Below, in pieces: positions 1,918 through 23,052 of a stretch of 64,000 nt of DNA. This DNA is from Pseudomonadota bacterium (lineage in GTDB: Bacteria > Desulfobacterota > Desulfovibrionia > Desulfovibrionales > Desulfovibrionaceae): positions 1 to 64,000 of the forward strand of contig JAHIUW010000023.1 in NCBI GenBank assembly GCA_018816865.1, given 5' to 3'. The notes beneath the pieces are model-generated. The model was not told the DNA's origin, searched no databases, and saw only the letters and a list, made by a program, of their open reading frames with translations. A program made the position numbers and the translations under genes. The stretch's first letter is position 1. The number at the start of each line of letters is the position of its first letter.

Positions 1918-3942
1918 CTAGTCCCGGGCCTCGTCGTCCTGGCGCTCGCCCAGGGTCCTGCGCCAGTCCTCCTTCAGGCGCAGGCCGTGATATTCCACGA
2001 TATTCGTGCGCCGCGAGCGGAAGCGGGTCTTCATGTCCGTGCCCCACTTGCGTTGGGACTGGACCATCTTCACGGGGATGGATTTCTCGGTCACGCACCA
2101 GAATTTGAAGCTCTCGTACAGGGCCTTGGACTGCTCGAAATTGTCCGCCGGGTGGTTCACGCAGTTCTCGATCCACTCGCCCACCAGGTCCTGTTCCGCG
2201 GTGTATTCCTCGGTCTCGGCCATGACCCCGGCCGGGGCCGCCAGGTCCTCCTCGCGCAGATAGCGGTGGGCGCAGCGCACCAGATAGGCCAGGATCCCCG
2301 GCCCCTCGGCCCGGTACTTGCGCTCCACGTCCTTCATGTTTCCGGCCTGGTAGATGTGCTTGGCCGGGTCCAGCAGCGAGCGGTCGCGCGTGAACTTGGC
2401 CCGAAACGGGATCAGCCGCAGCCTGCGGTAAAAGGCCGGGTCGTTGCCCTTGCACTCGGGCATGTAGTTGGTGTGCAGCAGGATCTTGGCCGTGTTGTGG
2501 AAGTCCACCAGGTCCGCGAACAGCCCGCGCGCGGACATGGTGTCCCCGCCGGTCAGGCTCTTGATGGTCGAGACGTTGAACTTGGAGCCTTGCTCGGCCT
2601 CGGAGAAGATGGCCAGCCGCAGGCCCATCAGCTTCATCAGCTCCGGGTCCGGGCCCCCGCCCTTGCGCATCTCGGTCAACAGCGACACGGGCACGGTCTC
2701 GGCCATGTCGCCCATGACCCAGGCAATGGTCTCGCACCACGAGCTCTTGCCGTTGTCGTGGGTCGGGCCATAGGCCGCCCAGAGCTGCTTGTGGCTCAAA
2801 AGCCCCGTGACCATGTAGCCCAGCACCCGGTCCAGGTAGTCCACTAGGTCCGGGTCGTAGCACATCATGCGCCACAGGCTCTCCTCAAAAAACGGGGCCT
2901 CCAGGTGCGGGCCCAGGTACTCAATGGGCGAGGCTTGGCGGATGTACTGCTCGGGTCGGCCCGGGTGCAGACGCATGGTCTCCAGGTCGATCACCCCGTT
3001 GGCGCAGGCCAGCAGGGTGGGGTGGCGGTCCCAGATCTCGCTGGTCACCCCCAGGGTCCCGCGCCCGGCCACGGCGGTCTGCAGGATCTTGCGCACCACG
3101 GGCAGGCGGCGCAGGTCGTCGGCTCGCGAGCTGTAGGGTTTCACCGCGGCCACAAGGTCCTTGTGCTCGGGGCTGCCGGGCTTGAGCCCGTCCCTGATCC
3201 GCTCCTGGATGCCCTTGCGCCGGCGGATGGCCTCGCGCTCAAAGGGCAGGGCCAGATCCATGACTTGGCGCTGGGCGTCGCGGTACTCGTCGGGTCGCCA
3301 GCGGATCCCGTCAAAGATCATCCAGTGGTCGCTCTTCTGGCCGTCGGCCTTCTTGGTCACGTCCAGCTCGCAGCAGATCCGGTCCCGGACCTTGGCCATG
3401 TACAGTTCGGCCAGGCCCAGGTCGCTGCGGTTGATGGCCGCCTGCAGCTCCTTGGCCGAGGGCGCCCAGTTCTCTTTGCCTGGGGCATCCTGCTGCTTGT
3501 TCTTCTTTTTGTCCTTATACCCCTGACCTGTGTCCGCGCCCCGGCCTGTGCCCGTGGGAGTGCCCTCACGCCCCTGACCTGTGTCCGTGCCCCGGCCTGT
3601 GCCCGTGGGAGTGTCCTCACGCCCCTGACCTGTGTCCGCGCCCCGGCCTGTGCCCGTGGGAGTGTCCAGACCGTCTTGGTCCTTGCCCGGAACACGGCCC
3701 CCTTGCTTGCCCTTCTTTCTGTCTCCGCGCTCCTTGTCTTGGCCAGTGTCCAGGGCCAGCATGGCCCGGCGCTCGTTCTCCACCTCGCCCAGGATCTCGG
3801 CCCGCAGCTCCTCGTCGCGCCACGCGCAAAGGTCAAACTCCCCCTTGCCCGAAACACAGCCCCGAGCGTCAAAGGCGTTTGGTCCCCTGGGCGCGTTGGT
3901 TACGTTGGACGCGTTGGTATGATCCTTTGAGGATTCAGGCAT
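1918..3942 (-). CDS. Phage/plasmid primase C-terminal D5_N/P4-family NTPase (helicase-like) protein. Probable start is the ATG at 3942, with an AGGGA RBS.
   Basis: Walker A GPTHDNGKSS. Conserved D5/P4 primase C-terminal region (VDYLDRVLGYMVTG...FNVSTIKSLTGGDTMSARGLF). N-terminal low-complexity repeat region. Confidence 0.8.
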   Translation of the reverse strand: MPESSKDHTNASNVTNAPRGPNAFDARGCVSGKGEFDLCAWRDEELRAEILGEVENERRAMLALDTGQDKERGDRKKGKQGGRVPGKDQDGLDTPTGTGRGADTGQGREDTPTGTGRGTDTGQGREGTPTGTGRGADTGQGYKDKKKNKQQDAPGKENWAPSAKELQAAINRSDLGLAELYMAKVRDRICCELDVTKKADGQKSDHWMIFDGIRWRPDEYRDAQRQVMDLALPFEREAIRRRKGIQERIRDGLKPGSPEHKDLVAAVKPYSSRADDLRRLPVVRKILQTAVAGRGTLGVTSEIWDRHPTLLACANGVIDLETMRLHPGRPEQYIRQASPIEYLGPHLEAPFFEESLWRMMCYDPDLVDYLDRVLGYMVTGLLSHKQLWAAYGPTHDNGKSSWCETIAWVMGDMAETVPVSLLTEMRKGGGPDPELMKLMGLRLAIFSEAEQGSKFNVSTIKSLTGGDTMSARGLFADLVDFHNTAKILLHTNYMPECKGNDPAFYRRLRLIPFRAKFTRDRSLLDPAKHIYQAGNMKDVERKYRAEGPGILAYLVRCAHRYLREEDLAAPAGVMAETEEYTAEQDLVGEWIENCVNHPADNFEQSKALYESFKFWCVTEKSIPVKMVQSQRKWGTDMKTRFRSRRTNIVEYHGLRLKEDWRRTLGERQDDEARD
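3520..3668. repeat. Near-perfect 3x51-bp in-frame tandem repeat inside the helicase gene, encoding (TGTGRGADTGQGREDTP)x3.
   Basis: Direct read: the unit cccctgacctgtgtccgcgccccggcctgtgcccgtgggagtg(c/t)cctcacg is repeated at 3520, 3571 and 3622. Confidence 0.9.
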
Positions 3943-4470
3943 CCCAGGCTCCCTTGCCGTTGAGGGTGACGCCGTCATAATTTGCTTGGCCGTCTGCCAT
4001 GCCATGAAAAATAGAGGTGATGGAGGTAACACGATCAGGCAGAAGAGTAGTCAGATTGGCCCGCCAGCTCGCGCGGTTCCATCTTTCCATTCCAAAATTG
4101 AAATTGATCCCGCACGCACTTCGTGCTGCTACCGACCCCTGTGGTTTAAGACCATGGGAAGTACCTACGATGTGTGGCCCTGTTGATTTTCGCGGGACTA
4201 GACCTTTCTTTTGTTCTTGTACTGAGGGGGGTGTGGGGTGTGGATGATTTTCACCCGCGTTGAAGCAGTGGTTGCGATCGCTGACGCTCTCGCATCCTTG
4301 AGATTTCGGTAGAGAATATGGGAGTGGCCAATCCGGTGTTGAGGGGACCGGTTTGGGGTCAAAAGTGGGGACAAAACGAGTAGGATATGGGAGCGGTTTA
4401 TGCTTCAGTTGAAGCCGGGAATCCCTTAAGTAAAGGGGCATCGAGGTCTCCCAGCCCGTGTCCTTGCTGC

Positions 4471-7670: not shown

Positions 7671-7885
7671 TTCAAATTTTTCAGAAACGAAGGACCAGTC
7701 CGCGATCGTGGGGCACCAGACTTTCCATTCACTCCCCATTCGCATAGAGAGGTCCATGCCCATGGACAAGCCGCGACGCCCCCAGGTGGGTTTGGCCCTC
7801 GGTCCTGGCCCTGGTTCCTGGCCGAGCATCCTGCGAGAGTCTCAAATCAATGCAATCCCCGGTTCGAATCTGGAGAGTCACCAAG

Positions 7886-9804
7886 TGAAGATCGTGAACG
7901 TTTTTGGAATGTCCTTAGCGTTGCTCCTCGTGTGCGGGGTGTTTTCTCCGCGGTCTGCTGCCTGGGCGCGGGATACCAGCCAGCCCAAGCCTGAACTCTA
8001 TCAGGCCATTGATCTGGGCGATCTTGCCCGGGCGCGGGTCGCCATCCAGAGCGCCGACGTGAATGCCATCTATGACCGGGATACAATGCTCTGCTGGGCG
8101 CTGCGAAACGAGAACCCGGAGATCACGAAGCTGCTGCTTCAGTCGCCCAGGGTGGACGTCAACAAGCGGGGCATTGGCTATGACGCCTACGGTGATTGGG
8201 AACGCACACCCTTGATCCTTGCCGCACACATGGGCCAGGCCGAGATGGTGGGCCTTTTGCTGCAGCGGGGCGCCAAAGTGAACGCCAGGGACCGCACGGA
8301 CAGCACACCGGAGGCGCGGGGGAACACCGCGCTGCTCAAGGCCGCGCAGAGAGATCACACGGAGGTGATCCGGGTGCTGCTCACCCAGGGGGCGGGCATT
8401 ACAGTCGATGCGCAGACCAAGGATGGCATGACGCCGCTGTGGTTCGTTGCGGAATATGAAAACCTTGAGGCGGTGCAGCTCCTGCTCGCCCACGGCGCAA
8501 AAATCAATCATCCCAACGTCGTGGGCCAGTCCCTGCTTGTGGGAACGTTTCTGCACAAAAAGTACGACGTCTTGGAGTTCCTTGTCGCCCAGGGCGCAGA
8601 CATCAATATGGTGGCAAATAGCGGGCTCACGCCGCTGATGGAGGCCGTCACCGAGCTCGGCGGTAAGAATGCAAAAACGGTCCTCAGGTACATTGAAAAA
8701 TTCATCACCTTCAAGCCCAAGCTGGACCTGGAGCAGATCAAGTCGAACGGTGGCGGCTTTAGTGCCCTGCATCTGGCCGCGCGCTTCGGGTTTGTGGATG
8801 CAGGCAAACTGCTGCTGGACAATGGCGCCAGCATCGACATCAAAGATCTGGCCACGGGCGGCACGCCCTTGCATTCCGCCGCAAGCGCCAACCAGGTCGA
8901 CTTCGCCAGGTTCCTGATCCAGCGCAAGGCCAACCTCGAGATTTTCGACAAAAGCGGCTCGACCCCGCTGATGGTGGCCGTCTATCAGGCTGACGCGGAC
9001 ATGGTGGAGGTCCTGGCGCAGGCCGGAGCGGCAATCAACACCAAATCACCCGTCAATATCCTTGTGACGCCCCTGGTGTATGCCGCCTCGAATCCCGATC
9101 CCTCCAAGCACAAGGACAACCTCTCCATCATCAAAATCCTCGTGGACAACAAGGGCGACATCAACTTCCAGTCCGCCAATGGCAGAACGGCGCTCATGGC
9201 CGCTGCCGCGTGCTCTGACCAAGCGAATGGATACGAGAAAGGGGCCTTGCTGCTCAACCACGGTGCGGACCCCGATGTCGTGAACGACAAGGGAGAGACG
9301 GCCCTGATGCTTGCTGCGGGCGCAGGGAATGAAAAACTCGTTAAGCTCCTCGTGGATAAGGGCGCCGACGTTACAAAAAAGAACGGCGCCGATGAAACGG
9401 TGATGAGCTATGCCAACCGATCCGGCAACAAGGGCAGTACGAGGTTGCTGGAATCCAAAGGCGTCGTGCCTGAAGCCCCCATTGTCAGAAAGAGCGTCAT
9501 TGTCGACGCACTGATCGGAACCTGGAAGGGCTTTCAGGATGGGCTTCCCCAGGCCTTGTACACCGTGGTCCTGAACAAGGACGGCAGCTTTGACTTCACT
9601 TCAAGGTTCACGCCCGAGGCCCTGAAGCAGTTCCCCAAGGGCGCAGTGAATCCGATCATTGCCGCCCAGAAGGGGACGTATACGTTCAACAATGATATCA
9701 TGATCTGGAATCTTGTCGGTGCCCCTCCCACGTCCATGAAGTGGAAGCTGGAGAACGGCGTGCTGGTCATCGACAACAAAATCAGACTGAAAAAGACCAA
9801 GTAA
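7886..9804 (+). CDS. Secreted ankyrin-repeat protein with a C-terminal beta-rich, lipocalin-like tail. Probable GTG start at 7886; the track ORF begins at 7708.
   Basis: Signal peptide VKIVNVFGMSLALLLVCGVFSPRSAAWA. At least eight ankyrin units (TPLxxAAxxGxxExVxLLLxxGAxVN). GGAGAG RBS 8 nt upstream of the GTG. Confidence 0.8.
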
Positions 9805-11304: not shown

Positions 11305-11422
11305 GTTTCCGGAAACGTAGGTCGAGATCGGGAGGCTTGCTTGGAGAGAATCCCCAGGTCGGGGCGTTTTCCAGGGAGAATGCAGGGACCTTCTCTCCGA
11401 CTGCCTGTCGTAGTGCAAAGGA

Positions 11423-11446
11423 GAGGCCCCGCTGGGGCAGGGCCTC
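11423..11446. terminator. Repeat family 2 GC-rich hairpin (GAGGCCCCGC-TGGG-GCAGGGCCTC) with a conserved TGCAAAGGA 5' flank. Likely terminator of the minus-strand operon ending at 11645.
   Basis: 10-bp inverted repeat. A second copy with 90%-identical flanks sits at 16575-16598. Confidence 0.6.
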
Positions 11447-11644
11447 GGTGGAATCAGGAGTAAAAAGGAGGGGCACTACATCAGGGCCGCACGGCTCCTG
11501 TCTTCCAGGGCCTCTCCTTTGCAACACACCGCCGTCTGCCACGACCTGTCGCAATTCCTGTCGTTATTCGACGGTCCTGGATCGTCCCGCCATCCGAAGT
11601 CAGAAACTCAGACTATAGCCCGGACAGTCACGTCCACCGGGGCC

Positions 11645-12070
11645 TCAGCACTCTTTGGAAGCAGAGCGGCAGGCATTGGTAAGCCTGTTCTCAATATACT
11701 GATAAAACTCGTCATCGAACTCGTAGAGATCGAAACACTTGGCGTCTTCGCCCAACAGGCCTTCGGGGACCTCGTCTCCACGCTGGTCCGGGTCGTCCAC
11801 GAGTTCGTTATAAAAACAGACCGAGAGCCATCGGTCAGCAGGGTCGTCATCGATAATGTCCACCATGGCGAACAGGCTCCGCTTTTGCTGGTTGGCATGA
11901 GAGGCGCGCAACGAATAGGTGATGCCCGGGCGGGCGATAAAAGTGAGGTTTACGTCACTGAGTCCCTCAAGGTGCTCCATGAAGCGAAGGAAGCATCGCT
12001 TGGTCCGATTCGGGTCTTTCGACCAGGATTCAAGGAATAATGTCAGTTCCTCGGTGCAGGTGGCATCCAT
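11645..12070 (-). CDS. Acidic hypothetical protein, last gene of the Cys-rich operon.
   Basis: Intact 141-aa ORF in a lower-GC stretch. The opposite-strand ORF 11519-12040 is less plausible. No recognisable motif. Confidence 0.4.
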   Translation of the reverse strand: MDATCTEELTLFLESWSKDPNRTKRCFLRFMEHLEGLSDVNLTFIARPGITYSLRASHANQQKRSLFAMVDIIDDDPADRWLSVCFYNELVDDPDQRGDEVPEGLLGEDAKCFDLYEFDDEFYQYIENRLTNACRSASKEC

Positions 12071-12124
12071 TGTTTCGGTTCTCCTCGCTTGTTGATTTGC
12101 CTATGTAGTCCACGACTCCAGCCA

Positions 12125-12622
12125 TCAGATATGGGGGATGTTACGGACAAAATCCTCCAGGAATATTTTCAGGTCATCCACCTTTTGGCTGCTGATGGTC
12201 GGGACGTCGGTGGCCAGGGCTTGCACCTTGTCCAGGGGAACGTTGATCGCCTTGTGCACCGTATAGGATTCCACGTCCTCGCCTTCCGGGACTCGGCCGC
12301 AGCCGCCGATGATGCCGATGAATTCATCATTCGCAAAGATGGGGGTACAGATTTTGAGCATTCCCGCGTCGCACTGCTCGAGGATCGTTTTCCCTGTGGA
12401 CCGGGCCTGTTTGGCCATGTGCTGATGCGCTACGGAACAGATCGCCTGGATTCCCTCAGGGTGAGATTTGATCTCGGCGCACAAGGGGTTGATGAAGTTC
12501 TTGAAGCCCGTAAAGGTCATCCCCTTGGCGTCATAGGCGCATGCGTTGACTCCCCAGTTGTTGTGCAGGTTCTTTTCCAGGTCGGCCCATTGATTCTTGG
12601 AAAGCAGGTCAGTCATTTCCAT
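12125..12622 (-). CDS. Cys/His-containing hypothetical protein, possibly ligand-binding (PocR-like?). Family not recognised with confidence.
   Basis: 165-aa ORF 45 nt downstream of the CGGC-like gene. Conserved-looking C...C/H pattern (CAEIKSHPEGIQAICSVAHQH, IGIIGGCG). Confidence 0.45.
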   Translation of the reverse strand: MEMTDLLSKNQWADLEKNLHNNWGVNACAYDAKGMTFTGFKNFINPLCAEIKSHPEGIQAICSVAHQHMAKQARSTGKTILEQCDAGMLKICTPIFANDEFIGIIGGCGRVPEGEDVESYTVHKAINVPLDKVQALATDVPTISSQKVDDLKIFLEDFVRNIPHI

Positions 12623-12664
12623 GGTGATCTCCTTGTTCTCAGATGTTCTGGTGTGGATGAGGCG

Positions 12665-13039
12665 TTAGATTTCAGGGGAGTATCCTTCGGGCAGATGAGC
12701 CGTGCCCTTGATGCAGGGAATGCCGGTGGCTTCGCGCATCTGGGAAAGCAATTGTTCGTGCTTTTCGCAAAAACCATCGCCTTCCAAAACCCACTTTCCA
12801 TCGACCTTGTTTGCAAAAAGACAAGTGGCGACGTGAATAACCTCAGCGCCTTTGGCCTTGAGGATCTTGGCCAGATTGACCACATTGTCCCCAGGGCAGC
12901 GGCAGGTGAAAATGCCTGCAAGCGTTGCCGCATCATAGGACTTGAAGCCCTGCGTTCTTTGCTCCAGGCAGGTGATACAGCCCGTTAACGGGCAGGTAGT
13001 TTCGTTTTTTTCGCAGCGGATGATTCCAATTTTTGTCAT
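12665..13039 (-). CDS. CGGC-domain-like Cys-rich putative metal-binding protein. Start at MTKIGIIRCE.
   Basis: The start MTKIGIIRCEKNETTCPLTGCITC resembles the CGGC-domain family; several Cys pairs (CRCPGD, CLFANK, CEKHE). Confidence 0.45.
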   Translation of the reverse strand: MTKIGIIRCEKNETTCPLTGCITCLEQRTQGFKSYDAATLAGIFTCRCPGDNVVNLAKILKAKGAEVIHVATCLFANKVDGKWVLEGDGFCEKHEQLLSQMREATGIPCIKGTAHLPEGYSPEI

Positions 13040-13070
13040 GCTGTCTACCTGTGTTGAATAGAATGTGTTG

Positions 13071-13517
13071 TTATTTTTCCTTTTCCATACGCAAGGTGCG
13101 TTTGTAGTAATCCCCCACGGCCTCTTGGAGGGCATTTGCCGCTAACGAGGCGCAATGCGCGTCATCGTCGGGAAGGCCTCCCAGGCGATGGAGGATGACC
13201 TTTCCGGTGATGGCGGAGAGGGCGTCGCTGTGTTTGTTCAGGGCGAGTTCCGCAGCCATGGAGCCACAGATCAGACTGGAGCCGCAGCCGGTTGTTTGGA
13301 ACCCGGACTGACAGACCATGTCGTCTTCGATATTCAAGAAAATGGTTATGTTGTCGCCACACTCTCCGGTCATGGAGCCCCGACAGTTGGTCTGTGGCGG
13401 TTCCCCCATGTTGGGAGGATTGCGCCAGCGGTCATAGGCCTTCTGGCCGTAGAGCGCGCTGGTTTCTTTGTCCATGCGATCTTGCAGGTCGTTGACGAAA
13501 TCATTGATGTCAGCCAT
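13071..13517 (-). CDS. NifU/IscU-like Fe-S cluster scaffold protein.
   Basis: The three scaffold Cys motifs GECGD, GCGSSLI and HCASLA at canonical spacing. Confidence 0.8.
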   Translation of the reverse strand: MADINDFVNDLQDRMDKETSALYGQKAYDRWRNPPNMGEPPQTNCRGSMTGECGDNITIFLNIEDDMVCQSGFQTTGCGSSLICGSMAAELALNKHSDALSAITGKVILHRLGGLPDDDAHCASLAANALQEAVGDYYKRTLRMEKEK

Positions 13518-13609
13518 GGCCCGTTCGTCTCCTTTTGATGGAATATATAGCGATCACCAAGCGTGGGCCCGGTGATCGCCGTAGGGTGGGCAGTACTGAC
13601 CGGGAACAC

Positions 13610-13954
13610 CTATTCGGCGTCCCTTTGATCCAGTTCGGCCATGCGCCGTTGGATGGCCTTTAGTTCTGATTCAAGAATCCTTGCTTGGTTTTGTAGGGCC
13701 TGTTGCTCGTCTTGCGGGCTGGGCGTGAATGCGGCCCCGGCAAGGGGAAGGCCCTGCCAGCCTCCGCAGCGGCCACCACGACCTCCCCGGAAGCCAAAGC
13801 CATAACGCAGGCGCATGCCGTTTGGCCCGTAGCCTGCCCCGTAGCCTGCGCCATACCCCCATGGGGTCGGGGCGTTGACGCCGGTGCACCCACCTAGGCC
13901 CCGGCCCGAGGCCGGGCCGATTCCCATAGGACCCGTTCCGTCTCTGCGTGGCAT
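13610..13954 (-). CDS. DUF5320-family protein. Start at MPRRDGTGPMGIGP.
   Basis: The N-terminus MPRRDGTGPMGIGPASGRGLGGCTG matches the DUF5320 signature; Gly/Tyr-rich middle; C-terminal coiled coil. Confidence 0.6.
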   Translation of the reverse strand: MPRRDGTGPMGIGPASGRGLGGCTGVNAPTPWGYGAGYGAGYGPNGMRLRYGFGFRGGRGGRCGGWQGLPLAGAAFTPSPQDEQQALQNQARILESELKAIQRRMAELDQRDAE

Positions 13955-13974
13955 GATTGCCTCCTTTGCTAATG

Positions 13975-14667
13975 TTACGCCCGCACCAGTGGCGCGTGGC
14001 AGTTCGAACATCTTCGTTGCGAGCAGGGGATGCCAGGCACAGCCTCAACCCTTTGTCCGCAGTGTGGGCATCGGCATGAGACCTGTTTCCGGTTCAAGGA
14101 CGATGCCTCCGGCGGTGTGGCGGGTTCCTCGCGCACATTGCCCTCGCCTGGTTCCATGAGTTGACCGCGTCTGTGCGCATGCCTGCCCTGACCCGACCAG
14201 GACTGCCCCCCTCGTCCGAATCTTCCGGCCCAGAGGAGGTTGCCAGCGGTTGGTTGAGAGCCGCGGGTCATGGAAAGCCTCCCGGCGTATCCTGGAACCA
14301 TGAATTGCTGATTGTCGAGTTGGTCGGCCCGCCATGCTGTGATGAGTTCTTCCAGGTCACCCATGAGGAAAGAGTGAACCGTGATGCCTTGCGCGGCAAT
14401 GACGCCGGACAGCTGCCGCGAGATGGCTCCGCACACCAGGACATCCACTCGCCATCTCTGCAACGCGGCGGTGGTGGCGTATGGTGCTTCGGTCGGCATG
14501 CGCACCACGCGGAGTGGTGTTTTGCAACAAGGGTCCTTCGCCACAAGGACGGCCTGCGACGCGACATCAAAGACCGGCGCTATCCGCTCTTCCCAGACGC
14601 TGAAAGCTGCGTTCATGGTGGGGCCTGCTCCTTCTTGCATTGAAAGAGCAGTATCCATGCCAAGCAA
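13975..14667 (-). CDS. NifX/NafY/NifB-type dinitrogenase FeMo-cofactor-binding domain protein (MTH1175-like) with a C-terminal zinc-ribbon extension. Start uncertain.
   Basis: RIAPVFDVASQAVLV...VDVLVCGAISRQLSGVIAAQGITVH matches the Nif_FeMo_cofactor fold. C-terminal CRCPHCG...CSNCH. Confidence 0.65.
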   Translation of the reverse strand: MLGMDTALSMQEGAGPTMNAAFSVWEERIAPVFDVASQAVLVAKDPCCKTPLRVVRMPTEAPYATTAALQRWRVDVLVCGAISRQLSGVIAAQGITVHSFLMGDLEELITAWRADQLDNQQFMVPGYAGRLSMTRGSQPTAGNLLWAGRFGRGGQSWSGQGRHAHRRGQLMEPGEGNVREEPATPPEASSLNRKQVSCRCPHCGQRVEAVPGIPCSQRRCSNCHAPLVRA

Positions 14668-14744: not shown

Positions 14745-14786
14745 GGGTCGCAATGCTGCGACCTTTCGGAGTGAAAGGGTCGCAGT
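14745..14786. promoter_or_regulatory. Array of three alternating GGTCGCA/TGCGACC half-sites between the sigma-54 activator gene and the NifX-like operon. Candidate UAS/operator, with a weak sigma-54 -24/-12-like element overlapping on the minus strand.
   Basis: GGTCGCAatgcTGCGACCtttcggagtgaaagGGTCGCA. On the minus strand aGGtcgcagcaTTGCg has correct GG-N10-GC spacing about 65 nt upstream of the ORF start. Confidence 0.4.
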
Positions 14787-14790
14787 TCTG

Positions 14791-16182
14791 CTACTCGTTC
14801 TCGGGGTTGGGCAAGGCCGAGTTGTTGCCCCGTGGGGGTGATTCGATGCCCAGTTCTTTGATCTTCCGGAACAGGGTGCTTTTGTGAATGCGAAGATCCT
14901 TCGCTGTCTCCAGTCGGTTGCCGCCGGCGCGCTGAAGCGCGTTCAGGATTAGTTGCGCTTCCATGCTCCTCAGCGTCGCGGCCAGACCGAGCGGGGACGG
15001 ACCCAAGGTGGAGGAATCCGGCGTTAAGAATTCTTCGGGCAGGTGACAGGGCTCGATCATCCCCCGATCACAGACGATGAAGGCCCGTTCGATGACATTG
15101 CGCAGTTCTCGAACATTGCCGGGCCAGAAGTGGTAGGTCAGTAAAGCCAGGGTCTCAGGAGCAAGGGCCTCGACTTGCTTGCCCTGGAGTGCGTTGAAAT
15201 GTTGGATGAAATGCATGCATAGCAGGGGAATGTCCTCCTTGCGGCAGCGCAGGGGTGGCAATTCCACTCGGGCTACATCAATCCGGTAGTACAGGTCTTC
15301 GCGGAAACTCCCTTCCTGGACCAGTTCCTCAAGGCGACGGTTCGTGGCGGCGATTATTCGCACATCCGAGGTCACCGATGCGACGCCGCCCAGGGGTTCG
15401 TAGACATGTTCCTGCAGGACCCGCAACAGCCGGACCTGCATGGCCGGACTGATATTGCCCAGTTCATCAAGAAAGAGAGTTCCGCCCGAAGCCAAGGCGA
15501 AACGACCCGGCTTGTCCCTGTGCGCCCCAGTAAAAGCTCCGGCCTTGTAGCCGAAAAGTTCGGACTCAAGCAGAGACTCCGGCAGGGCTCCGCAGTTCAG
15601 CGCCACAAAGGGGGCACCCTTGCGAGGGCTGAGGGCGTGGATGGTGCGAGCGATCAGTTCCTTGCCCGTGCCTGTCTCCCCCTGGATAAGCACGGTGCTG
15701 GAACTGGCGGCGATGGGTTCAAGGGAGGCGAAGATGCGCTGCATCAGCGGACTGCGGCTGACAAGATCGCCAACACGGAATCGTCCCTCGAGTTCGTGGC
15801 GCAGGGCCTCCACTTCGCTCAGATCACGGAAGGTCTCGGCACCTCCGATGACTTCTCCTGCAGCATTGCGCAGGACGGCCGTGGACAAGCTGATGGGAAT
15901 CTGGTTTCCCGAGGCGTCGATGATGTAGCCCGTGCGACCGATCAGGGGCTTGCCGGTGCGCTGGGTTTCGCGCAGACAGCAATGGTCGCCGCACATGGAG
16001 GATCTGAATACTTCCGAACAACGCTTGCCGAGTGCTTCATGGCGGGGGATGCCGGTGATCTCCTCGGCGGCCCGATTGAACGAGAGGATTCGCCAGTCGG
16101 GGTCCACCGTGAACACACCGTCCGAGATGCTTTCCAGGATTGCCTCATACTGGTCGGGTGATGGTATGGGTTTGATGGTCAT
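14791..16182 (-). CDS. Sigma-54-dependent Fis-family transcriptional activator with an N-terminal PAS domain.
   Basis: PAS (SISDGVFTVD). AAA+ sigma-54 interaction domain with GETGTGKE, the GAFTGA motif and ESELFGY. C-terminal HTH. Confidence 0.9.
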   Translation of the reverse strand: MTIKPIPSPDQYEAILESISDGVFTVDPDWRILSFNRAAEEITGIPRHEALGKRCSEVFRSSMCGDHCCLRETQRTGKPLIGRTGYIIDASGNQIPISLSTAVLRNAAGEVIGGAETFRDLSEVEALRHELEGRFRVGDLVSRSPLMQRIFASLEPIAASSSTVLIQGETGTGKELIARTIHALSPRKGAPFVALNCGALPESLLESELFGYKAGAFTGAHRDKPGRFALASGGTLFLDELGNISPAMQVRLLRVLQEHVYEPLGGVASVTSDVRIIAATNRRLEELVQEGSFREDLYYRIDVARVELPPLRCRKEDIPLLCMHFIQHFNALQGKQVEALAPETLALLTYHFWPGNVRELRNVIERAFIVCDRGMIEPCHLPEEFLTPDSSTLGPSPLGLAATLRSMEAQLILNALQRAGGNRLETAKDLRIHKSTLFRKIKELGIESPPRGNNSALPNPENE

Positions 16183-16574
16183 AGCCGAAATCCTTCACTC
16201 CTGTTTCATCTGGCTCTGGCTCAGGCAAGGCTTACGCGGTTTCATCACCTTCTAGGGTCTTCAGGGTGCTCTCAAGCGTTTCACCGGCAGGATTGAAAAT
16301 ATACTTCTCCTGAAAGATTGATGCGTCAAATAGGTGTGTTGATGCAGAGTTGACAATCAACCACCGAAATCCGCCCGAGTCAATTTATCGAAAAAAGATT
16401 CGAAGGTAATCCTTAAGTTGATTGGCTGGATTGGAAGAGCGGTTGGCGAGTGTCCCTTGTCTGATTCGCAGTTCTGGTGCCGTGCGGTTCCGGCACCAGG
16501 GTGGGGGACTTTTGCTGAAAGGACATCTTCCCCTCATTCTTGACTGGTCGAGCGTTGCAAAGAAGAGGCCCCGC

Positions 16575-16598
16575 TGGGGCGGGGCCTCGACGGAGAAC
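16575..16598. terminator. Repeat family 2 hairpin (GAGGCCCCGC-TGGG-GCGGGGCCTC) downstream of modC, with the conserved TGCAAAGAAGA flank.
   Basis: Perfect 10-bp inverted repeat; the minus-strand reading is followed by TTCTTTGCA. Confidence 0.6.
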
Positions 16599-16625
16599 CA
16601 GAAGTGAAGAGGATGGAAAGGGTCG

Positions 16626-17315
16626 TCAGGGTCGCTGGGCGGCCGTCTGCATCCCTGCGAAATCCCCCTGCACGACACGCTGCAACCAGTTCTCCGAAAG
16701 GCAGCCCCGCTCCAGGGCCAGGGTCTGGTCGGCCAGGTAGGCGGCTTCTTCCAGGTCGTGGGTCACGTGCAGGATGGGGATGGGCAGGACTTGCTTCAGA
16801 TCCCGCAGTTCCCGGCGCAGGGAGCGGCGGGTGTCCACGTCCAGGGCCGAGAAGGGCTCGTCCAGCAGCAGCAACACGGGCTCGCGGGCCAGGGCCTGGC
16901 AGAAGGCCGCGCGCTGGCGCTCACCCCCGGAGATGGCCGCCGGGCGCTTGTCCGCCAGATGGCTGATGCCGAAGGTCGTGAGCAACTCCGCCACGCGGTC
17001 CCTGTCCTTGGTGGCGAAGCCCACGTTGTCGCGCACGCTTAAGTGCGGGAACAGCGGATAGTCCTGAAAGACCAGCCCCAGGCCGCGTCGCTGCGGCGGC
17101 AGGAAAGTCTTGGCCGCAGTATCCACGAACACCGTGTCTCCCAGGGTGACCCGCCCCTCATCCGGCTTCTCCAGTCCGGCCAGGATGCGCATCAAAGTGG
17201 ACTTGCCCGCGCCAGACGGGCCGACGATGGCCGTCAGCTGTCCGGGGGGGCAGCTCAGGCAGACCGCAAGGTCGAAGTGGGGCAGGCGTTTGCTGATCTG
17301 AACGTGCAGGGTCAT
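16626..17315 (-). CDS. modC: Molybdate/tungstate ABC transporter ATP-binding protein (ModC/TupC-like, short form without TOBE domain).
   Basis: Walker A GPSGAGKST, signature ISGGERQR, Walker B LLLDEP. ATGA overlap with the upstream permease gene. Confidence 0.8.
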   Translation of the reverse strand: MTLHVQISKRLPHFDLAVCLSCPPGQLTAIVGPSGAGKSTLMRILAGLEKPDEGRVTLGDTVFVDTAAKTFLPPQRRGLGLVFQDYPLFPHLSVRDNVGFATKDRDRVAELLTTFGISHLADKRPAAISGGERQRAAFCQALAREPVLLLLDEPFSALDVDTRRSLRRELRDLKQVLPIPILHVTHDLEEAAYLADQTLALERGCLSENWLQRVVQGDFAGMQTAAQRP

Positions 17316-17971
17316 GAGCGGCTCCCGTTGCCCAGGCGGTTGATGGTCATCAAGGCCGCAAAGCTGATGGGGATCAGCGCCAGGGACAGATACAGGGCGT
17401 CGTCGTAGCGCAGGGCCTCCACGGCCTCGAAGATGGCGATGGAGGCCACCTTGGTGGACCCGGGCATGCTGCCGCCCACCATCAGGATCACCCCGAATTC
17501 CCCCAGGGAATGGGCGAAGACCAGCACCGACGCCGCGCACAGCCCCGGCAGGCTGTTGGGCAGCACCACCCGGAAGAAGGCCGCCGTGGGCGATAGTCCG
17601 AGGACTGCGGCGGCCTCCAGCAGGCGATGGTCGAGCTTCTGAAAGGCGGCGCGCATGGGTTGCACCGCAAAGGGCAAGTTGTAGACCAGGGACGCGATGA
17701 GGATACCCGCGAAGCTGAACACCAGGCGTTGACCGAACAGGGACTCCCAGGCCGCACCCAGAGGCGCCCCCGGACTCATGCAGACCAGCAGGGCGAAGCC
17801 CAGCACCGTCGGCGGCAGCACCATGGGCAAGGATACCAGGGCGTCGGCCACGCTCTTGCCCCTGAAGCGGAAGAAGGCCAGGGCATAGGCGATGGGCGCG
17901 GCCACCAGCGGCAGCAGCAGGGTGGTCAGCAGCGCCAGCTTGGCGGAGATCACCAGAGGTGTCAGATCCAT
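17312..17971 (-). CDS. modB: Molybdate/tungstate ABC transporter permease.
   Basis: Six-TM MetI-type permease with the EAA loop (EAAAVLG...); translationally coupled to modC. Confidence 0.8.
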   Translation of the reverse strand: MDLTPLVISAKLALLTTLLLPLVAAPIAYALAFFRFRGKSVADALVSLPMVLPPTVLGFALLVCMSPGAPLGAAWESLFGQRLVFSFAGILIASLVYNLPFAVQPMRAAFQKLDHRLLEAAAVLGLSPTAAFFRVVLPNSLPGLCAASVLVFAHSLGEFGVILMVGGSMPGSTKVASIAIFEAVEALRYDDALYLSLALIPISFAALMTINRLGNGSRS

Positions 17972-17999
17972 CGATTTACCCTCATCTCTTCATCCTCAT

Positions 18000-18752
18000 T
18001 TATTCGTATCCGAACTTGGCCTTGATGCTCTTGACCTCGGGGCTGGTCAAGAACTCGATGAATTTGCGCGCGGCCTCGGGATGGGGGGCGCTCTTCAGCA
18101 GACAGGCGGACTGGACCACGGGCGGGGCCTCGACCATGGGCGTGAAGCAGCCCTTGCGACCGAGTTCCGTGAACACCGAGGAATAGGCGACAAAGCCCGC
18201 ATCCGCCGCCCCGGTCTGGGCGAACTGGAAGGCCTGGGCGATGCTCTGGCCGAAGACCAGCTTGGGCTGCATGGAGTCCCAGATGTCGGTCTTCTGCATG
18301 GCCAGCATGGCGGCGGTGCCGTAGGGGGCGGTTTCGGTGTTGGCGACGGCGACCTTGATCGCGCTGGCATCCATGGCGGCCTCATGCCAGGGGCGGTTGC
18401 ACAGCTCCTGCTTCAGGGACCAGAACACGACCTTGCCCAGGGCGTAGACAAAGGGTTTCTCCGCCAGACCGTCGGCAAACAGCTTGTTTGGGCGTTTCTC
18501 GTCGGCGGCCAGGAACAGGTCGTGGGGCGAGCCGTTGCTGATCTGGGCGTAGAGCTTGCCGGTGGAGGCGTAGGTGGCCTCGGCCTTGATGCCGCTGGCC
18601 GCCTCGAAGGCCGGGATGATTTCCGCCATGGCGGGCATGAAATTAGCGGCCTGGGCGATGAGCAGATCAGCGGCGCGGGCCGGGGCCGACATCGTCAGCA
18701 TCAGCCCCAGGGCGAGCAGCAGGGCAGCTGTTTTCAGAAAGTTGCGTTTCAT
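18000..18752 (-). CDS. modA: Molybdate/tungstate-binding periplasmic protein. Start MKRNFLK at 18752.
   Basis: Signal peptide MKRNFLKTAALLLALGLMLTMSAPARA; cluster-D SBP fold; operon with modBC. Confidence 0.8.
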   Translation of the reverse strand: MKRNFLKTAALLLALGLMLTMSAPARAADLLIAQAANFMPAMAEIIPAFEAASGIKAEATYASTGKLYAQISNGSPHDLFLAADEKRPNKLFADGLAEKPFVYALGKVVFWSLKQELCNRPWHEAAMDASAIKVAVANTETAPYGTAAMLAMQKTDIWDSMQPKLVFGQSIAQAFQFAQTGAADAGFVAYSSVFTELGRKGCFTPMVEAPPVVQSACLLKSAPHPEAARKFIEFLTSPEVKSIKAKFGYE

Positions 18753-18922
18753 AGTATTTTGCTCCGGTTCTTGCGCTTGTTGAAGGTTTTCTGGATGCTC
18801 CGAATGGTTCGAGCATGTAGCCATAGGGCGCGCAGGCAAAATGGGCAACGCGGTTACGTTTTCATCGGAAAACGTGACCGAACAGCAGCGCAGGGGCGAC
18901 ATGTGCAACCAGGAGCAAGGCA

Positions 18923-20050
18923 ATGAGCGGCGATCAGGACCCAAACAGACCACGGGATACGGTCCCAAAGACAACCCCGGACACGGCACGGGACACGGCG
19001 GAAGCGGCCAGACCGGCGCGGTTGGCGCCGCACAAGTTTTTTACCGTGCCCGATGGGCTGCGCCATCTCGATGCGGGGCAGTTGGCGCAGTTCGAGGCGT
19101 CGTTCCGTACCTGGGTCGAGGGGGCGCGCCGGGCCGATGCGCGCCGCGCGCGGGAACGCACGCGCCTGCTTTTTCTGCTGTTGCGCTACACCGGGGCGCG
19201 GCTGGGCGAGGTCGTGGGCCCGAACGACCTGGGCTATCTGGACCTTGCGGGCAGCAGGGCCGTGTTCGACGCGAACGGCGGCCAACGCCTGGTGCCGCTG
19301 TCGCGCATGCTCTGCCGCGAGCTGAGTCTGTTCCTGGACGGGCCCATGGGCGCGGGTCTCAGCGGCAATGTCTTTGCGGCGGACCCGGGCTATGTGCGCC
19401 GGGTGTTCTATGCCCGGGCCGAGGCCTGCGGCCTGCCCCGCGAGTTGGGCACGCCCCGGGTGCTGCGCACCTCGCGGGCGGTGGAACTGTTGCGCAGCGG
19501 GGTGCCGCTGGCCGTGGTGCGCGACGTGCTCGGCCAGTCCTCGACGTCTCTGTCCACCGTCTACCAGGCCTACAGCAGCGAGGATTCCCAGCACATCGTG
19601 CGTCGCCTGGCCCCGGATGACCTGCCCCTGCGCAGCAGCGCCCGCAACAGCTTCCCCTGCCGTGTGGAACAGGTCCGTTGCGACGGCGTGTTGGCCGAGG
19701 TCCAACTGCGGACCTACGCGGGAGCGCCCCTGTCTGCGGTGATCACGATGGAGAGTTCGCAGAATCTCGGGCTGGAGCCGGGGGTGCCGGTGGTCGCCAC
19801 GATCAAGGCCCCGCTGGTGGACGTGGGTCAGGCGGACGGGGGCAGGGGCTGCATGTGCAACGCCTTGGCCGCCGTGATCACGGAGGTGCGCAGCAACGAG
19901 GTCGTGGCCGAGGTCATGGGCGAAGCCGCAGACGGAGCGAAACTCTGCGCCCTGGTCAGCGCCGGGGCCCTGCACGACAGCGGCGTGGGTGAAGGCGATT
20001 TGGTCCAGTTCCGGTTCAAGGCCCTGGCCGTGGTTCTGGGCGCCTTGTAG
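18923..20050 (+). CDS. ModE-like Mo-responsive regulator: a tyrosine-recombinase-fold N-terminal domain fused to two TOBE (Mop) molybdate-binding domains.
   Basis: Integrase-like box I (YTGARLGE) and C-terminal LRTSRAVELLRSGVPLAVVRDVLGQSS...TVYQAY. Two Mop repeats (SARNSFPCRVEQV...ATIKAPLV and CMCNALAAVITEV...FRFKAL). Confidence 0.8.
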   Translation: MSGDQDPNRPRDTVPKTTPDTARDTAEAARPARLAPHKFFTVPDGLRHLDAGQLAQFEASFRTWVEGARRADARRARERTRLLFLLLRYTGARLGEVVGPNDLGYLDLAGSRAVFDANGGQRLVPLSRMLCRELSLFLDGPMGAGLSGNVFAADPGYVRRVFYARAEACGLPRELGTPRVLRTSRAVELLRSGVPLAVVRDVLGQSSTSLSTVYQAYSSEDSQHIVRRLAPDDLPLRSSARNSFPCRVEQVRCDGVLAEVQLRTYAGAPLSAVITMESSQNLGLEPGVPVVATIKAPLVDVGQADGGRGCMCNALAAVITEVRSNEVVAEVMGEAADGAKLCALVSAGALHDSGVGEGDLVQFRFKALAVVLGAL

Positions 20051-20123: not shown

Positions 20124-22013
20124 TCAATGCCGTCGCGAATCGGCCACCTCTGGCCTTGCCGCTCCATTCCCCCGTCGTCTCACAAATCCGGTCACGGCCA
20201 TCAGGGCCACGGCCAGGATGATCAGCCCGGCGGCCACGGCCGCGATGACCGGGTCCATCTGGTCGCGGATGCCGTCCCACATCTGTTTGGGCAGGGTGGT
20301 CGAGCGCGCCCCGCTGATGAACAGGGCAACGATCAACTCGTCGAAGCTGGCGATGAAGGCGAAGATGGCGGCGGTGAGCAGCCCCGGGCGGATCAGGGGC
20401 AGGGTGACGTGCGCAAAGGTCCGCAGCCGTCCGGCCCCCAGGCTGTGGCTGGCCTGTTCCAGCCCGTGGTCCAGGCCGTGGAGGGTGGTGGTCATGACGA
20501 TGATCACAAAGGGCACGGCCAGCACGGTGTGGGCCAGGACTAGTCCGGTGATGGTGCCGATGAGTTTCAGTTTGGCCATGAAGAAGTACATGGCCACGGC
20601 GTTGATGATGGCCGGCAGGACCAGGGGGCTGATGAACAGGCCATAGGCGGTCTGGCGGGCCGCCCCTTTGAGGCGGGCGATGCCCATGGCCGCCAGGGTG
20701 CCCAGGACCGTGGCCAGGAGCATCACCGGGGCGGCTACGCGCAGGCTGTTCATGGTGGCCCGCATCCAGGGGCCGGAGCTGAAGAACGATTTGAAGAGCC
20801 CCAGGCCCACGGTCTGGGGCGGGAAGCGCAGGATGGTGTCGTTGGAAAAGGCGATGGGCAGGATCACGCCCAGGGGCAGGATCAGATAAGCCGCTCCCAG
20901 GGCGCAGATCGTCCGCAGCCCCCACAGCCCCCAGGGCACCCTGCGCAGCCCCTGGGGCAGGCGGCAGGCCAGGGCTTCAAAGAGCTGTGTGGTCCGGCGG
21001 GTCCATTGCAGGTGGATTGTCTCGCAACTGTCCAGCCAGCGCTCGGCCCCCCAGTGCATGAGCCTGGTCATGAGGGTCGCCCTCAGGCCGCGTCGTGAGG
21101 CGCGCGGGCCGCTGTGGCCCCCGGGCTTGGAGCCGAACAGGGATTCCAGGCCCATGAAGCGCAGGCACAGGGCAAAGAGCAGCATCACCGTCAGCAGCAG
21201 AACCACGCTCAGCACCCCGGCAAAGGCCCAGTCGTTGACGATCTCCAGCTGGGAATTGATGCTCATGGCGATGACGGTCTCCCTGGGGCCGCCCGTGAGG
21301 GTGGGCGTGACAAAGGTGCCCGCGCCGACGATGAAGGTCAGCAAAAAGGCCGCGGCCACGCCGGGCAGGCTCAGCGGCAAAAAGACCCGGCACAGGCGCT
21401 GCAGGGGCGAGGACCCCAAGCTGTCGGCGGCCCGCAGCAGGTTGCGGTCGATGCCCAGCATGACGCTGTGCATGGGCAGCACGGCATAGGGCAGCAGCAC
21501 GTAGGTCAGGCTGAGGTAGACCCCGCAGCGGTTGTACATCAGCTCCAGGGGGGCCTGGGTCAGCCCCGTCCATTGCAGCAGGCTGTTGACCACCCCGAAA
21601 CGGCCCAGGATGATCATCCATGAATAGGTGCGCACCAGCACCGAGATCCAGAAGGGCAGGGTCACGGCGGCCATGAGCAGCGTGCGCCAGGCAGGGCCGA
21701 AAAAGGTCATGCCGTAGGCCAGGGGGTAGCCCAGCAGCACGGCGGCTGTGGTGGCCCAGAAGCTGATCTCCAGCGTGTTCAGCAGAACCTTTAGATAGAC
21801 GGGGTGTCGCCACAGGTTCGCGTAGTGTTCCAGGGTGAAGTCCGGGGAAAACAGGCTTTGCTGCAGCACCCCTGCCAGGGGCAGCAGATAGAAGACCAGT
21901 AGATAGAGGGCCAGGGGCCCGAGCAGCAGAGCCACGGCCCAGTGGGGCCGCAGCGCGTGCAGCAGGGCGGGCCAGAGGCCCGCCCTGCGTGTTGTGGTGA
22001 GGTGGTGTTCCAT
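20124..22013 (-). CDS. ABC importer permease with two fused MetI-type permease domains (FbpB/ThiP/PotBC-like).
   Basis: 629 aa, about 12 TM, internal duplication; operon with the SBP and ATPase below. Confidence 0.8.
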   Translation of the reverse strand: MEHHLTTTRRAGLWPALLHALRPHWAVALLLGPLALYLLVFYLLPLAGVLQQSLFSPDFTLEHYANLWRHPVYLKVLLNTLEISFWATTAAVLLGYPLAYGMTFFGPAWRTLLMAAVTLPFWISVLVRTYSWMIILGRFGVVNSLLQWTGLTQAPLELMYNRCGVYLSLTYVLLPYAVLPMHSVMLGIDRNLLRAADSLGSSPLQRLCRVFLPLSLPGVAAAFLLTFIVGAGTFVTPTLTGGPRETVIAMSINSQLEIVNDWAFAGVLSVVLLLTVMLLFALCLRFMGLESLFGSKPGGHSGPRASRRGLRATLMTRLMHWGAERWLDSCETIHLQWTRRTTQLFEALACRLPQGLRRVPWGLWGLRTICALGAAYLILPLGVILPIAFSNDTILRFPPQTVGLGLFKSFFSSGPWMRATMNSLRVAAPVMLLATVLGTLAAMGIARLKGAARQTAYGLFISPLVLPAIINAVAMYFFMAKLKLIGTITGLVLAHTVLAVPFVIIVMTTTLHGLDHGLEQASHSLGAGRLRTFAHVTLPLIRPGLLTAAIFAFIASFDELIVALFISGARSTTLPKQMWDGIRDQMDPVIAAVAAGLIILAVALMAVTGFVRRRGNGAARPEVADSRRH

Positions 22014-22032
22014 GCCGGGTCCTGGCGTCCCC

Positions 22033-23052
22033 TTACTGCATCTTCCAGGCTTCCCACCTGGCGGTGACTTCCTTGCCGTGCTCGCGGTACCATTCGCCGT
22101 CGATGACCACGGCGTTCTTCATGTTGTCCGGGTGACTGGGCATCTGACGGGCCAGCTCATCGGGGATGTAGTCGTAGGCCTTGAGGTTGGAGGGGCCGTA
22201 ATAGCTGGCCATGGCCAACGCGGCCTGGCGCTTGGGGTCGGTGGAGTACTTGATGAACTTCATGGCCGCTTCCTTGCGGGGGCAGCCCTTGAGGATGACC
22301 AGATAGTCCAGGTCCACGATGGAGCCGTTCCATTCCACGGCCACGGGCACGCCGTCCTTGGCGATGTCCAGCATCCGGCCCGCGGCAAAGCTGCCCGTGT
22401 CGGCCTCGTGGGCGCGCATGACCTGTTGGGCCTGGGCGCCGTTCTTCCAGTAGACCTTGATCTGCGGCTTGAGTTCGTCGAGCTTCTTGAAGGCCCGGTC
22501 CACGTCAATGGGGTAGATCTGGCTGGGCGGCACGCCATCGGCCAACAGGGCGGCTTCGAGGTTGGAATAGGCCGTGTACTTCACGGCCCTGGGGCCGGGG
22601 AACTTTTCGGTGTCCCAGACGTCGGCCCAGGTCTTGGGGCCCTGGCCCGCAGGCCAGACATCGGTGCGGTAAGCGACGTTGTGCGAATAATAGACCGTGG
22701 ACACGCCAAAGGGCTGGATGCCGCCCTTCACGAAGTCCTCCACCGGGATGCCCGTGAGATCCAGGGGCTCGAACAGGCCGTCATGGGCGCCCAGCACGTA
22801 GCCGTTGATGGACGGTTCCACCACATCCCATTCGATGTTGCCGCTCTGTACCTGGGCCTTCATCTTGGCGTAGTTGGGGAAGGAGACGAAGACGACCTCG
22901 ATCCCGGTTTCCTTGGTGAAAGGTTGGGCGATGGCTTCGTCCAGGGCCTTGTTGTAGGTGCCGCCGTAGCTGCACACGGTGATGGTCTCGGCTTGGGCGA
23001 TCCCGGTGGCTGCGAACAGACACAGGGCCACGACGAGTAAGGCGCGTTTCAT
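22033..23052 (-). CDS. Periplasmic substrate-binding protein, cluster D (PotD/FbpA/ThiB-like).
   Basis: Signal peptide MKRALLVVALCLFAATGIAQA; 339 aa; family-1 extracellular solute-binding fold. Confidence 0.75.
   Translation of the reverse strand: MKRALLVVALCLFAATGIAQAETITVCSYGGTYNKALDEAIAQPFTKETGIEVVFVSFPNYAKMKAQVQSGNIEWDVVEPSINGYVLGAHDGLFEPLDLTGIPVEDFVKGGIQPFGVSTVYYSHNVAYRTDVWPAGQGPKTWADVWDTEKFPGPRAVKYTAYSNLEAALLADGVPPSQIYPIDVDRAFKKLDELKPQIKVYWKNGAQAQQVMRAHEADTGSFAAGRMLDIAKDGVPVAVEWNGSIVDLDYLVILKGCPRKEAAMKFIKYSTDPKRQAALAMASYYGPSNLKAYDYIPDELARQMPSHPDNMKNAVVIDGEWYREHGKEVTARWEAWKMQ

Follow-up and report, generated by a model that had tools for sequence, protein, structure and literature searches.

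Six Genes behind an OrpR-Type Activator: A Candidate Lineage-Specific Variant of Orange Protein Clusters in a Pseudodesulfovibrio-Like Genome

Organization of the Operon

The stretch of DNA considered in this study, called the window in the following, comprises 64,000 nucleotides of contig JAHIUW010000023.1 from the Pseudodesulfovibrio-like genome of a sulfate reducer. Between positions 11645 and 14616 it carries six head-to-tail open reading frames (ORFs) on the minus strand, numbered here as genes 1 to 6 in the direction of transcription, and ahead of them lies the gene of a PAS/sigma-54 activator. We have analysed this operon computationally with respect to its structure, its promoter and activator sites, the domains or folds of its proteins, and the conservation of its head (activator, gene 1 and gene 2) and of its variable tail (genes 3 to 6). 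The results point to a relationship with the gene clusters of the orange protein (ORP) type. The features are collected in Table 1.

Table 1. Coordinates of the operon, its control region and its surroundings, given as positions in the window.
Feature	Position	Strand	Basis or remark
Activator gene, PAS + sigma-54 AAA+ (GAFTGA) + Fis-type helix-turn-helix (HTH)	14791–16182	−	Pfam, sequence
Predicted upstream activator site 1, GTAGCAGAACTGCGAC	14779–14794	−	overlaps stop codon of activator gene
Predicted upstream activator site 2, GTCGCAGCATTGCGAC	14747–14762	−	32 bp from site 1
Sigma-54 promoter, TTGGCATGGATACTGCT (GG-N10-GC)	14647–14663	−	upstream of gene 1
Gene 1, NifX/ORP-fold domain + linker + Cys6 ribbon	13975–14616	−	homologs, profile, AlphaFold2 (AF2) model
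Gene 2, DUF5320	13610–13954	−	Pfam E 3e-21
Hairpin, GGCGATCACC-N12-GGTGATCGC	13550–13580	−	92-bp spacer between genes 2 and 3; read from sequence
Gene 3, IscU/NifU_N-type Fe-S scaffold	13071–13517	−	Pfam NifU_N E 8e-23, 81 bits
Gene 4, CGGC-domain protein, 9 Cys	12665–13039	−	Pfam E 6e-24
Gene 5, stand-alone PocR domain	12125–12622	−	Pfam PF10114, E 1e-17
Gene 6, acidic alpha-beta protein	11645–12070	−	family absent from Pfam; invariant C85, C112
GC-rich hairpin, likely operon terminator	11423–11446	−	within ~90-nt repeat
modCBA	16626–18770		
TOBE regulator	18923–20050	+	
Molybdopterin oxidoreductase	24196–26310		
HdrA-like genes	54641–61698		

The intergenic gaps are short (20, 92, 31, 42 and 54 bp from gene 1 to gene 6) and every start is preceded by a Shine–Dalgarno sequence. 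The six-gene operon that an initial annotation had placed at 11645–14667 can thus be retained, while three of its starts had been set too far upstream. For gene 1 we assign the ATG at 14616 (213 residues) instead of the earlier TTG at 14667, because the sigma-54 promoter falls within the first ORF as previously drawn. The corrected start of gene 2 is at 13954 (114 residues, N-terminus MPRRDGTGP) and that of gene 4 at 13039 (124 residues). All three lengths also result from a separate gene call, made on an identical contig of 11 kb. Together, the six proteins contain 38 cysteines in 905 residues, just 2 of them contributed by DUF5320.

Searches for sigma-70 promoters and terminators within the operon gave nothing above chance, and the RNA fold directly 3' of gene 6 is no better than those of shuffled sequences (z = 0.10). 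Some 200 nt beyond gene 6 lies one copy of a direct repeat of about 90 nt, which contains the hairpin that is the likely terminator of the operon. This repeat has just two copies in the window, 11410–11495 and 16552–16640, and they flank the activator gene and the six genes; the twin of the hairpin (16565–16588) is found between modC and the activator gene. Because of this hairpin we consider the operon to be a unit separate from modABC. With the repeat on both sides, and with relatives in other genomic contexts, the block of activator and six genes may have moved. The other hairpin listed in Table 1, with a stem of 9–10 bp, stands ahead of the NifU gene.

Regulatory Region

The PAS domain of the activator carries the motif C55-S-E57-x6-C64-x3-C68 (C-x-E-x6-C-x3-C). 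In OrpR, the activator of the orp operons of D. vulgaris, redox sensing by a [4Fe-4S] cluster requires C52, C61 and C65, and position 54 is a conserved acidic residue, E/D54 (PMC8359166). Compared by the published residue positions, the motif in the window is the same as C52/E54/C61/C65 of OrpR. It is kept in 44 of 45 distinct activators encoded upstream of gene 1 homologs, and the activator of the window is 63–65% identical to those at the head of ORP-type clusters. Judged by this motif and by these relatives, the protein is an OrpR-type enhancer-binding protein.

Two 16-bp palindromes, sites 1 and 2, are located between the stop codon of the activator gene and the promoter, and they are the sole perfect matches to GT[ACT]GC-N6-GC[GTA]AC across the 64 kb of the window. 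We have also considered 50 distinct activator–gene 1 spacers of other genomic or metagenomic origin. Of these, 47 have one or more such sites, with at most one mismatch, at the same position, and 32 have paired sites 32–34 bp apart, the background being 0.024 sites per 160 bp. The spacing of 32 bp in the window is that of the two OrpR sites mapped at orp1 of D. vulgaris Hildenborough (DvH) (PMC3897727). Equivalent sigma-54 promoters are found 5' of the gene 1 homologs of L004, L089, L090 and L091 and of about 45 metagenome loci. The regulatory design, consisting of an OrpR-type activator, two predicted operators and a sigma-54 promoter, is well supported by these comparisons.

Another element considered was a site for integration host factor in the stretch that separates the promoter from the activator sites. 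This stretch contains an AATCAA tract, but WATCAR-N4-TTR is not matched and we claim no such site.

Tandem pairs of sigma-54 activators with the PAS cysteine motif occur in two of the related loci (L004, 4152–7427; L089, 2549–5560), and in L089 the first of the two faces a divergent NifX–Mrp pair. This arrangement suggests paralogous regulators for separate ORP sub-operons.

Head Proteins

The gene 1 protein consists of a domain (residues 1–110), a disordered, cationic Gly/Arg-rich linker (111–178) and a Cys6 ribbon (179–213). Its score against Nitro_FeMo-Co (PF02579) is 18.1 bits, below the Pfam gathering cut-off of 26.3, such that the initial NifX-like assignment does not hold on the family score itself. 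It does hold on other grounds. Most of 98 homologs carry PF02579 or a NifB/NifX name, and a profile of 20 homologs matches TM1290 (1rdu) with an E-value of 2e-4. In the AF2 model the pLDDT is about 90 for residues 1–110, below 50 for 116–175 and 96 for 178–213, and Foldseek matches the model to PH0822, TM1816, MJ0327, NifX, MTH1175 and the D. gigas orange protein (2wfb), with a target-normalised TM-score of 0.75 to both PH0822 and TM1816. We therefore describe gene 1 as NifX-like by its homologs and predicted fold, and not by its Pfam score.

The C-terminal ribbon shows the invariant or near-invariant pattern C-x-C-x2-C ... C ... C-x2-C. The linker contains 12 Gly, 12 basic and 3 aromatic residues in 68 and has an isoelectric point (pI) of 11.7; among 20 homologs the linker pI is 8.5–12 in all and above 10 in 19. 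A related architecture is known from IssA of P. furiosus (PF2025), in which a NifX-like domain (IPR003731) is followed by a disordered, Gly-rich cationic tail with a pI of 10.7, for which wrapping of anionic thioferrate was proposed; the same work mentions a mesophilic clade, 'IssX', as yet uncharacterised (PMC5524996).

Gene 2 encodes the DUF5320 protein, in which the N-terminus is followed by a region rich in Gly, aromatic residues and Arg, and by an acidic C-terminal helix. Residues 1–80 include 26 Gly, 9 aromatic, 8 basic and 9 Pro residues and have a pI of 10.8. One homolog, P0277, is a fusion of DUF5320 with Nitro_FeMo-Co. The N-terminal motif of the family is MP[RG]GD[GR]TGP, and the product of orp5 (DVU2105), the first gene of DvH orp2, begins with MPYGD (PMC3897727, Figure S1). 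In L091, moreover, a DUF5320 gene lies directly 5' of the CbiA-Fer4 ATPase genes, the same order as that of orp5 before orp4 and orp3. On the basis of these five residues and the gene order, DUF5320 is probably the family of Orp5, a homolog of which binds [2Fe-2S] (PMC6345978). Literature searches on DUF5320 and on the CGGC domain found nothing useful.

Conserved Head and Variable Tail

With gene 6 as the anchor, the operon was found in just 3 of 80 species loci, all from close relatives. After so few operons had been recovered, the anchor was switched to gene 1, which gave a set of 80 metagenome loci. In this set the activator is immediately upstream in 45 of 49 loci, and DUF5320 immediately downstream in 47 of 65. 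The content of the tails could be counted in 28 long loci: Mrp occurs in 23, CbiA-Fer4 (CbiA-ferredoxin ATPases) and NifX in 21 each, Zn_ribbon_8 in 15, the metallo-beta-lactamase fold in 12, NifU and a TrmO-like protein in 11 each, and radical SAM in 9, while CGGC is rare (2 loci), as are PocR and gene 6 (1 each). The ORP complex includes Orp3/4, Orp8 and Orp9 (PMC6345978), and by its families the usual tail content corresponds to this complex. By gene order and domain content, the activator, the NifX-like/ribbon gene and DUF5320 are the conserved head of ORP-type clusters. The tail in the window (NifU, CGGC, PocR and gene 6) is a rare variant, found in 1 of the 28 loci.

The initial expectation that the genes would be conserved as a set is borne out in one locus, L004, where all six recur, and fails in three others. 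Of the syntenic operons, L092 and L172 have no NifU, and L173 has neither NifU nor PocR. The NifU stretch looks like a lineage-specific insertion for this reason. A Desulfobulbaceae operon (L038) has yet another composition, with activator, gene 1, NifU, CbiA-Fer4, two NifX, two DUF5320, gene 6 and CGGC.

Tail Proteins

For DUF5320, NifU and CGGC, the family names given initially were recovered in the Pfam search (E-values in Table 1). Gene 3 keeps every ligand of IscU, in the motifs CGD, GCG and HC (three Cys, Asp and His), and they align with those of its best relative of solved structure, 4eb5, which is the IscU of A. fulgidus (E 1e-22). Its scores in the NCBIfam equivalog models are too low for assignment to either, being 89.7 against a cut-off of 187.9 for NifU_clost and 52.5 against 192.4 for IscU.

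Neither of the last two proteins had initially been given a family. For the one encoded by gene 5 this can be corrected, as it is a PocR domain (64.4 bits, cut-off 23.9) that stands alone, with no output domain. In the alignment of its homologs C48, C62, H66, C84, D85, C92 and C108 are invariant; at least 66 homologs were found in a word-limited search, those named being mostly from Desulfovibrionaceae. The CGGC protein of gene 4 recurs in ORP-type clusters and is elsewhere paired with gene 6 or PocR. Outside ORP contexts, PocR is found by itself or together with CGGC, a CGGC–PocR pair being present in L087.

PocR is a family of sensory domains. Together with the stand-alone form of gene 5, its five invariant Cys and one His, and its occurrence outside ORP contexts, this raises the question of whether the PocR protein, and perhaps gene 6 or CGGC, are co-sensors or modulators of the activator and not cluster carriers. 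Such a regulatory accessory module is in our view very unlikely: the operon of L173 has no PocR yet keeps the activator and its sites, and gene 1, DUF5320 and NifU would be left unexplained.

For gene 6 the initial statement stands, since it has no Pfam or NCBIfam match, and 18 members of its family likewise have none in Pfam at E-values up to 10. The protein has a pI of 4.4; C85 and C112 are invariant, and patches of Asp/Glu are conserved. Its family is compact, with 186 clusters at 50% identity among 1.84 billion representatives, and populous, with at least 530 species genomes. The protein is identical to one from a metagenome-assembled genome, and its nearest named relatives are from Pseudodesulfovibrio. 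The AF2 model (pLDDT 94) has the order helix–helix, six strands, helix, and a Foldseek search of it against the PDB gave no significant match. Sequence searches of the PDB with the PocR, CGGC and gene 6 proteins gave no match either. No family relationship to frataxin/CyaY, YdhG (DUF1801) or YjbR appeared when the 18 members were compared with Pfam and gene 6 with PDB sequences, and a frataxin-like character of the modelled fold is a lead only.

In other genomes gene 6 is found alone, beside CGGC, in an ORP-type operon or after moaB. As neighbours in either order, gene 6 and CGGC occur in L037 (9412–10393), L066 (2524–3640), L075 (2603–3540) and L038 (9992–10980), and the pair is also present in L173. 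These pairs span separate lineages, which suggests that the gene 6 and CGGC proteins work together.

The pairs are also pertinent to the idea that the six genes are only loosely co-transcribed, with the activator, gene 1 and DUF5320 as the conserved unit and the tail as passengers that were shuffled in and have no common function. The variable composition of the tail, the solitary occurrence of gene 6 and PocR in other genomes, and the flanking repeat, with its suggestion of a block that moved, would all agree with it. Against it stand the recurrence of gene 6 with CGGC across lineages and gene orders, the pairing of CGGC with PocR, and the presence of NifU in 11 of 28 ORP-type tails; moreover, every protein of the tail is Cys-rich or metal-related. 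We find this explanation highly doubtful.

Proposed Role

The explanation that we favour, with a confidence somewhat better than even, is that the operon is a lineage-specific variant of the ORP-type clusters of anaerobic Desulfobacterota, in which anionic metal-sulfide species would be handled under redox gating. A module for metallocluster assembly or trafficking, as proposed initially, with its target enzyme outside the operon, fits the evidence as well, but the description was too generic and missed the closest system, that of ORP.

In the mechanism that we envisage, the PAS domain of the activator would hold a [4Fe-4S] cluster, by analogy with OrpR, and the protein would activate only at low redox potential. 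It would bind the two palindromes, which are 32 bp apart and have their centres some 95 and 125 bp upstream of the −24 element, and drive the one sigma-54 promoter, from which all six genes would be transcribed. The six proteins, produced under this redox gating, would then serve in the binding, assembly or transfer of anionic metal-sulfide species, which could be Fe-S, thioferrate-like material or Mo/W-S clusters. Gene 1 would contribute a cluster-binding domain of NifX/ORP fold, an IssA-like cationic Gly/Arg tail and the Cys6 ribbon, DUF5320 a second tail of Gly, aromatic residues and Arg, and gene 3 an IscU-type scaffold. As accessory binders of metals or clusters one could consider the CGGC protein, the PocR-domain protein with its Cys5His set and the acidic product of gene 6. 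NifU, CGGC, PocR and gene 6 would in this way replace the Mrp and the CbiA-ferredoxin ATPases of typical ORP clusters. We infer the PAS domain's cluster and the redox gating from the motif shared with OrpR; the ligands, and which way any transfer would go, are likewise inferred.

Several observations weigh against this explanation. Neither the operon nor the rest of the window contains the core ORP genes, which encode the orange protein as a single domain, two CbiA-Fer4 ATPases and MrpORP; tblastn of the window with CbiA-Fer4, ParA/Mrp and NifX queries from L090 and L091 gave only ferredoxin-motif matches in the Hdr-like genes, and gene 1. Since these defining genes are absent, we do not classify the operon as an ORP operon but as a variant of that kind. 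NifU and PocR are dispensable among close relatives (L092, L172, L173), gene 6 frequently stands alone in other genomes, and no cysteine desulfurase is present in the operon or nearby. The half-site in the window is GTAGC, as compared to GGGCG in the DvH OrpR site GGGCGYRTTTTGCGCCC, and the activator may therefore be a paralog with a signal of its own. Finally, cell division is no more than a proposed physiological role of ORP itself.

Genomic Surroundings and the Possibility of a Mo/W Function

The activator gene, modCBA, the TOBE regulator, the molybdopterin oxidoreductase and the HdrA-like genes all lie where they had been described initially. The regulator at 18923–20050 has two TOBE stretches, a weakly phage-integrase-like N-terminal half and no ModE-type HTH, an architecture that we take to be that of TunR of sulfate reducers; a literature search on TunR found nothing useful. 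Between this regulator and the oxidoreductase, a second ABC transporter is encoded on the minus strand (20124–24550), made up of a 629-residue double permease, a binding protein of the SBP_bac_8 type and a TOBE_2-containing ATPase.

These neighbours were the origin of the initial proposal of a tie to modABC and Mo/W metabolism, in which the proteins of the operon, acting in concert with modABC and the TOBE regulator, would supply Mo/W enzymes as carriers of molybdate, tungstate, thiomolybdate or molybdenum cofactor (Moco) intermediates. Apart from the adjacency to modCBA, the TunR-like regulator and the oxidoreductase, some indirect hints speak for it. In 33 of 74 genome loci gene 6 follows directly after moaB, in the order pyrR–moaB–gene 6 on one strand with gaps of 4–200 bp and with mobA–moaE–moaC divergent. 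In four metagenome loci (L111, L113, L114 and L132) genes for a ModA-like periplasmic binding protein and a metallo-beta-lactamase-fold protein lie directly 5' of the activator gene of ORP-type clusters, and a Mo-Cu-S cluster is known as the ligand of the orange protein (PMC6345978).

The tie is nevertheless weak. In none of L004, L092, L172 and L173 is modABC beside the operon, and in the window itself the hairpin intervenes between modC and the activator gene. An Rfam scan of the whole window at gathering scores revealed no Moco or other riboswitch. The loci with moaB are all Desulfobacteraceae-like (L006, L012, L018, L023 and 29 others, about 10 kb in), so that the linkage belongs to one clade only, and as this gene group also includes pyrR, it may reflect a single event. 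The activator motif, in addition, points to sensing of redox and not of Mo. The conserved hints of Mo are limited to the clade-bound linkage of gene 6 to moaB, the ModA-like gene of four loci and the Mo-Cu-S cluster of ORP. A Mo/W-specific role is thus possible but not favoured, and we regard it as unlikely. We read the operon as a rare, undescribed variant of ORP type and not as a Mo-specific system.

Two further genes lie outside these considerations. A few kb downstream of the operon, on the plus strand (7708–9804), is the gene of a large ankyrin-repeat protein with a hydrophobic N-terminal segment, 698 residues long in the ORF list and 680 as called on an identical contig (L001). At the start of the window, a primase-like protein with D5_N/DUF5906 (1918–4032, minus strand) suggests a mobile or phage-derived element.

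Implications

ORP-type clusters are common in strict anaerobes, and the functions proposed for them range from cell division to Mo-Cu handling and Fe-S delivery. The present locus offers a number of leads: a conserved regulatory head for which operator motif and spacing are defined, the likely assignment of DUF5320 to the Orp5 family, the likeness to the IssA tail that gene 1 and DUF5320 show, and a compact new family, that of gene 6, tied to CGGC and moaB. A variant that is free of the ATPases may help to distinguish the roles of the head proteins from those of the ATPase complex.

Combining these leads, one can speculate that the head is a widespread OrpR-type regulon of Desulfobacterota for IssA-like storage or carriage of metal-sulfide polymers, and that gene 6 founds a family of acidic metal donors, which would act with CGGC and, in Desulfobacteraceae, with Moco synthesis. 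As a whole we consider this combination to be rather improbable.

Comparison with Known Systems

The domain of gene 1 has the predicted fold of NifX, NafY and the C-terminal domain of NifB (PF02579), and most of its homologs pass PF02579. It differs from these proteins in that no nif genes are nearby, its own score is under the Pfam cut-off, and a linker and a ribbon are added. Compared to the IscU/NifU systems with frataxin-type partners (CyaY; Fra/YdhG), gene 3 is far under the equivalog cut-offs and has no desulfurase nearby, and no relation of gene 6 to frataxin, DUF1801 or YjbR is seen in sequence.

There is also a likeness to IssA and IssX. In gene 1, as in these proteins, an IPR003731/NifX-like domain is followed by a disordered, Gly-rich cationic stretch of high pI (about 11–12), and residues 1–80 of DUF5320 have the Gly/aromatic/Arg/Pro make-up of the IssA tail. 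Unlike in IssA, the cationic stretch of gene 1 is not C-terminal, as the protein ends in the Cys6 ribbon, and it is poor in aromatic residues (3 of 68, compared to 9 of 80 in DUF5320). Gene 1 is moreover bacterial, from a mesophile and under sigma-54 control.

The most extensive comparison is that with the ORP cluster and OrpR of DvH (DVU2103–DVU2109). The operon in the window has neither the single-domain orange protein nor the CbiA-ferredoxin ATPases (Orp3/4) and MrpORP (Orp9), its tail consisting of NifU, CGGC, PocR and gene 6, and it forms a single operon, where DvH has two divergent ones. The half-sites differ as given above, and the activator has GAFTGA in place of GAFTDA. Shared with the DvH cluster are the sigma-54 promoter and the adjacent PAS/AAA+/HTH activator with the same motif of three Cys and an acidic residue, the two palindromic upstream sites 32 bp apart, the NifX/ORP-fold protein of gene 1, and DUF5320 as the probable Orp5 family. 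Most of the related loci, finally, place homologous heads before Mrp, CbiA-Fer4 and NifX genes.

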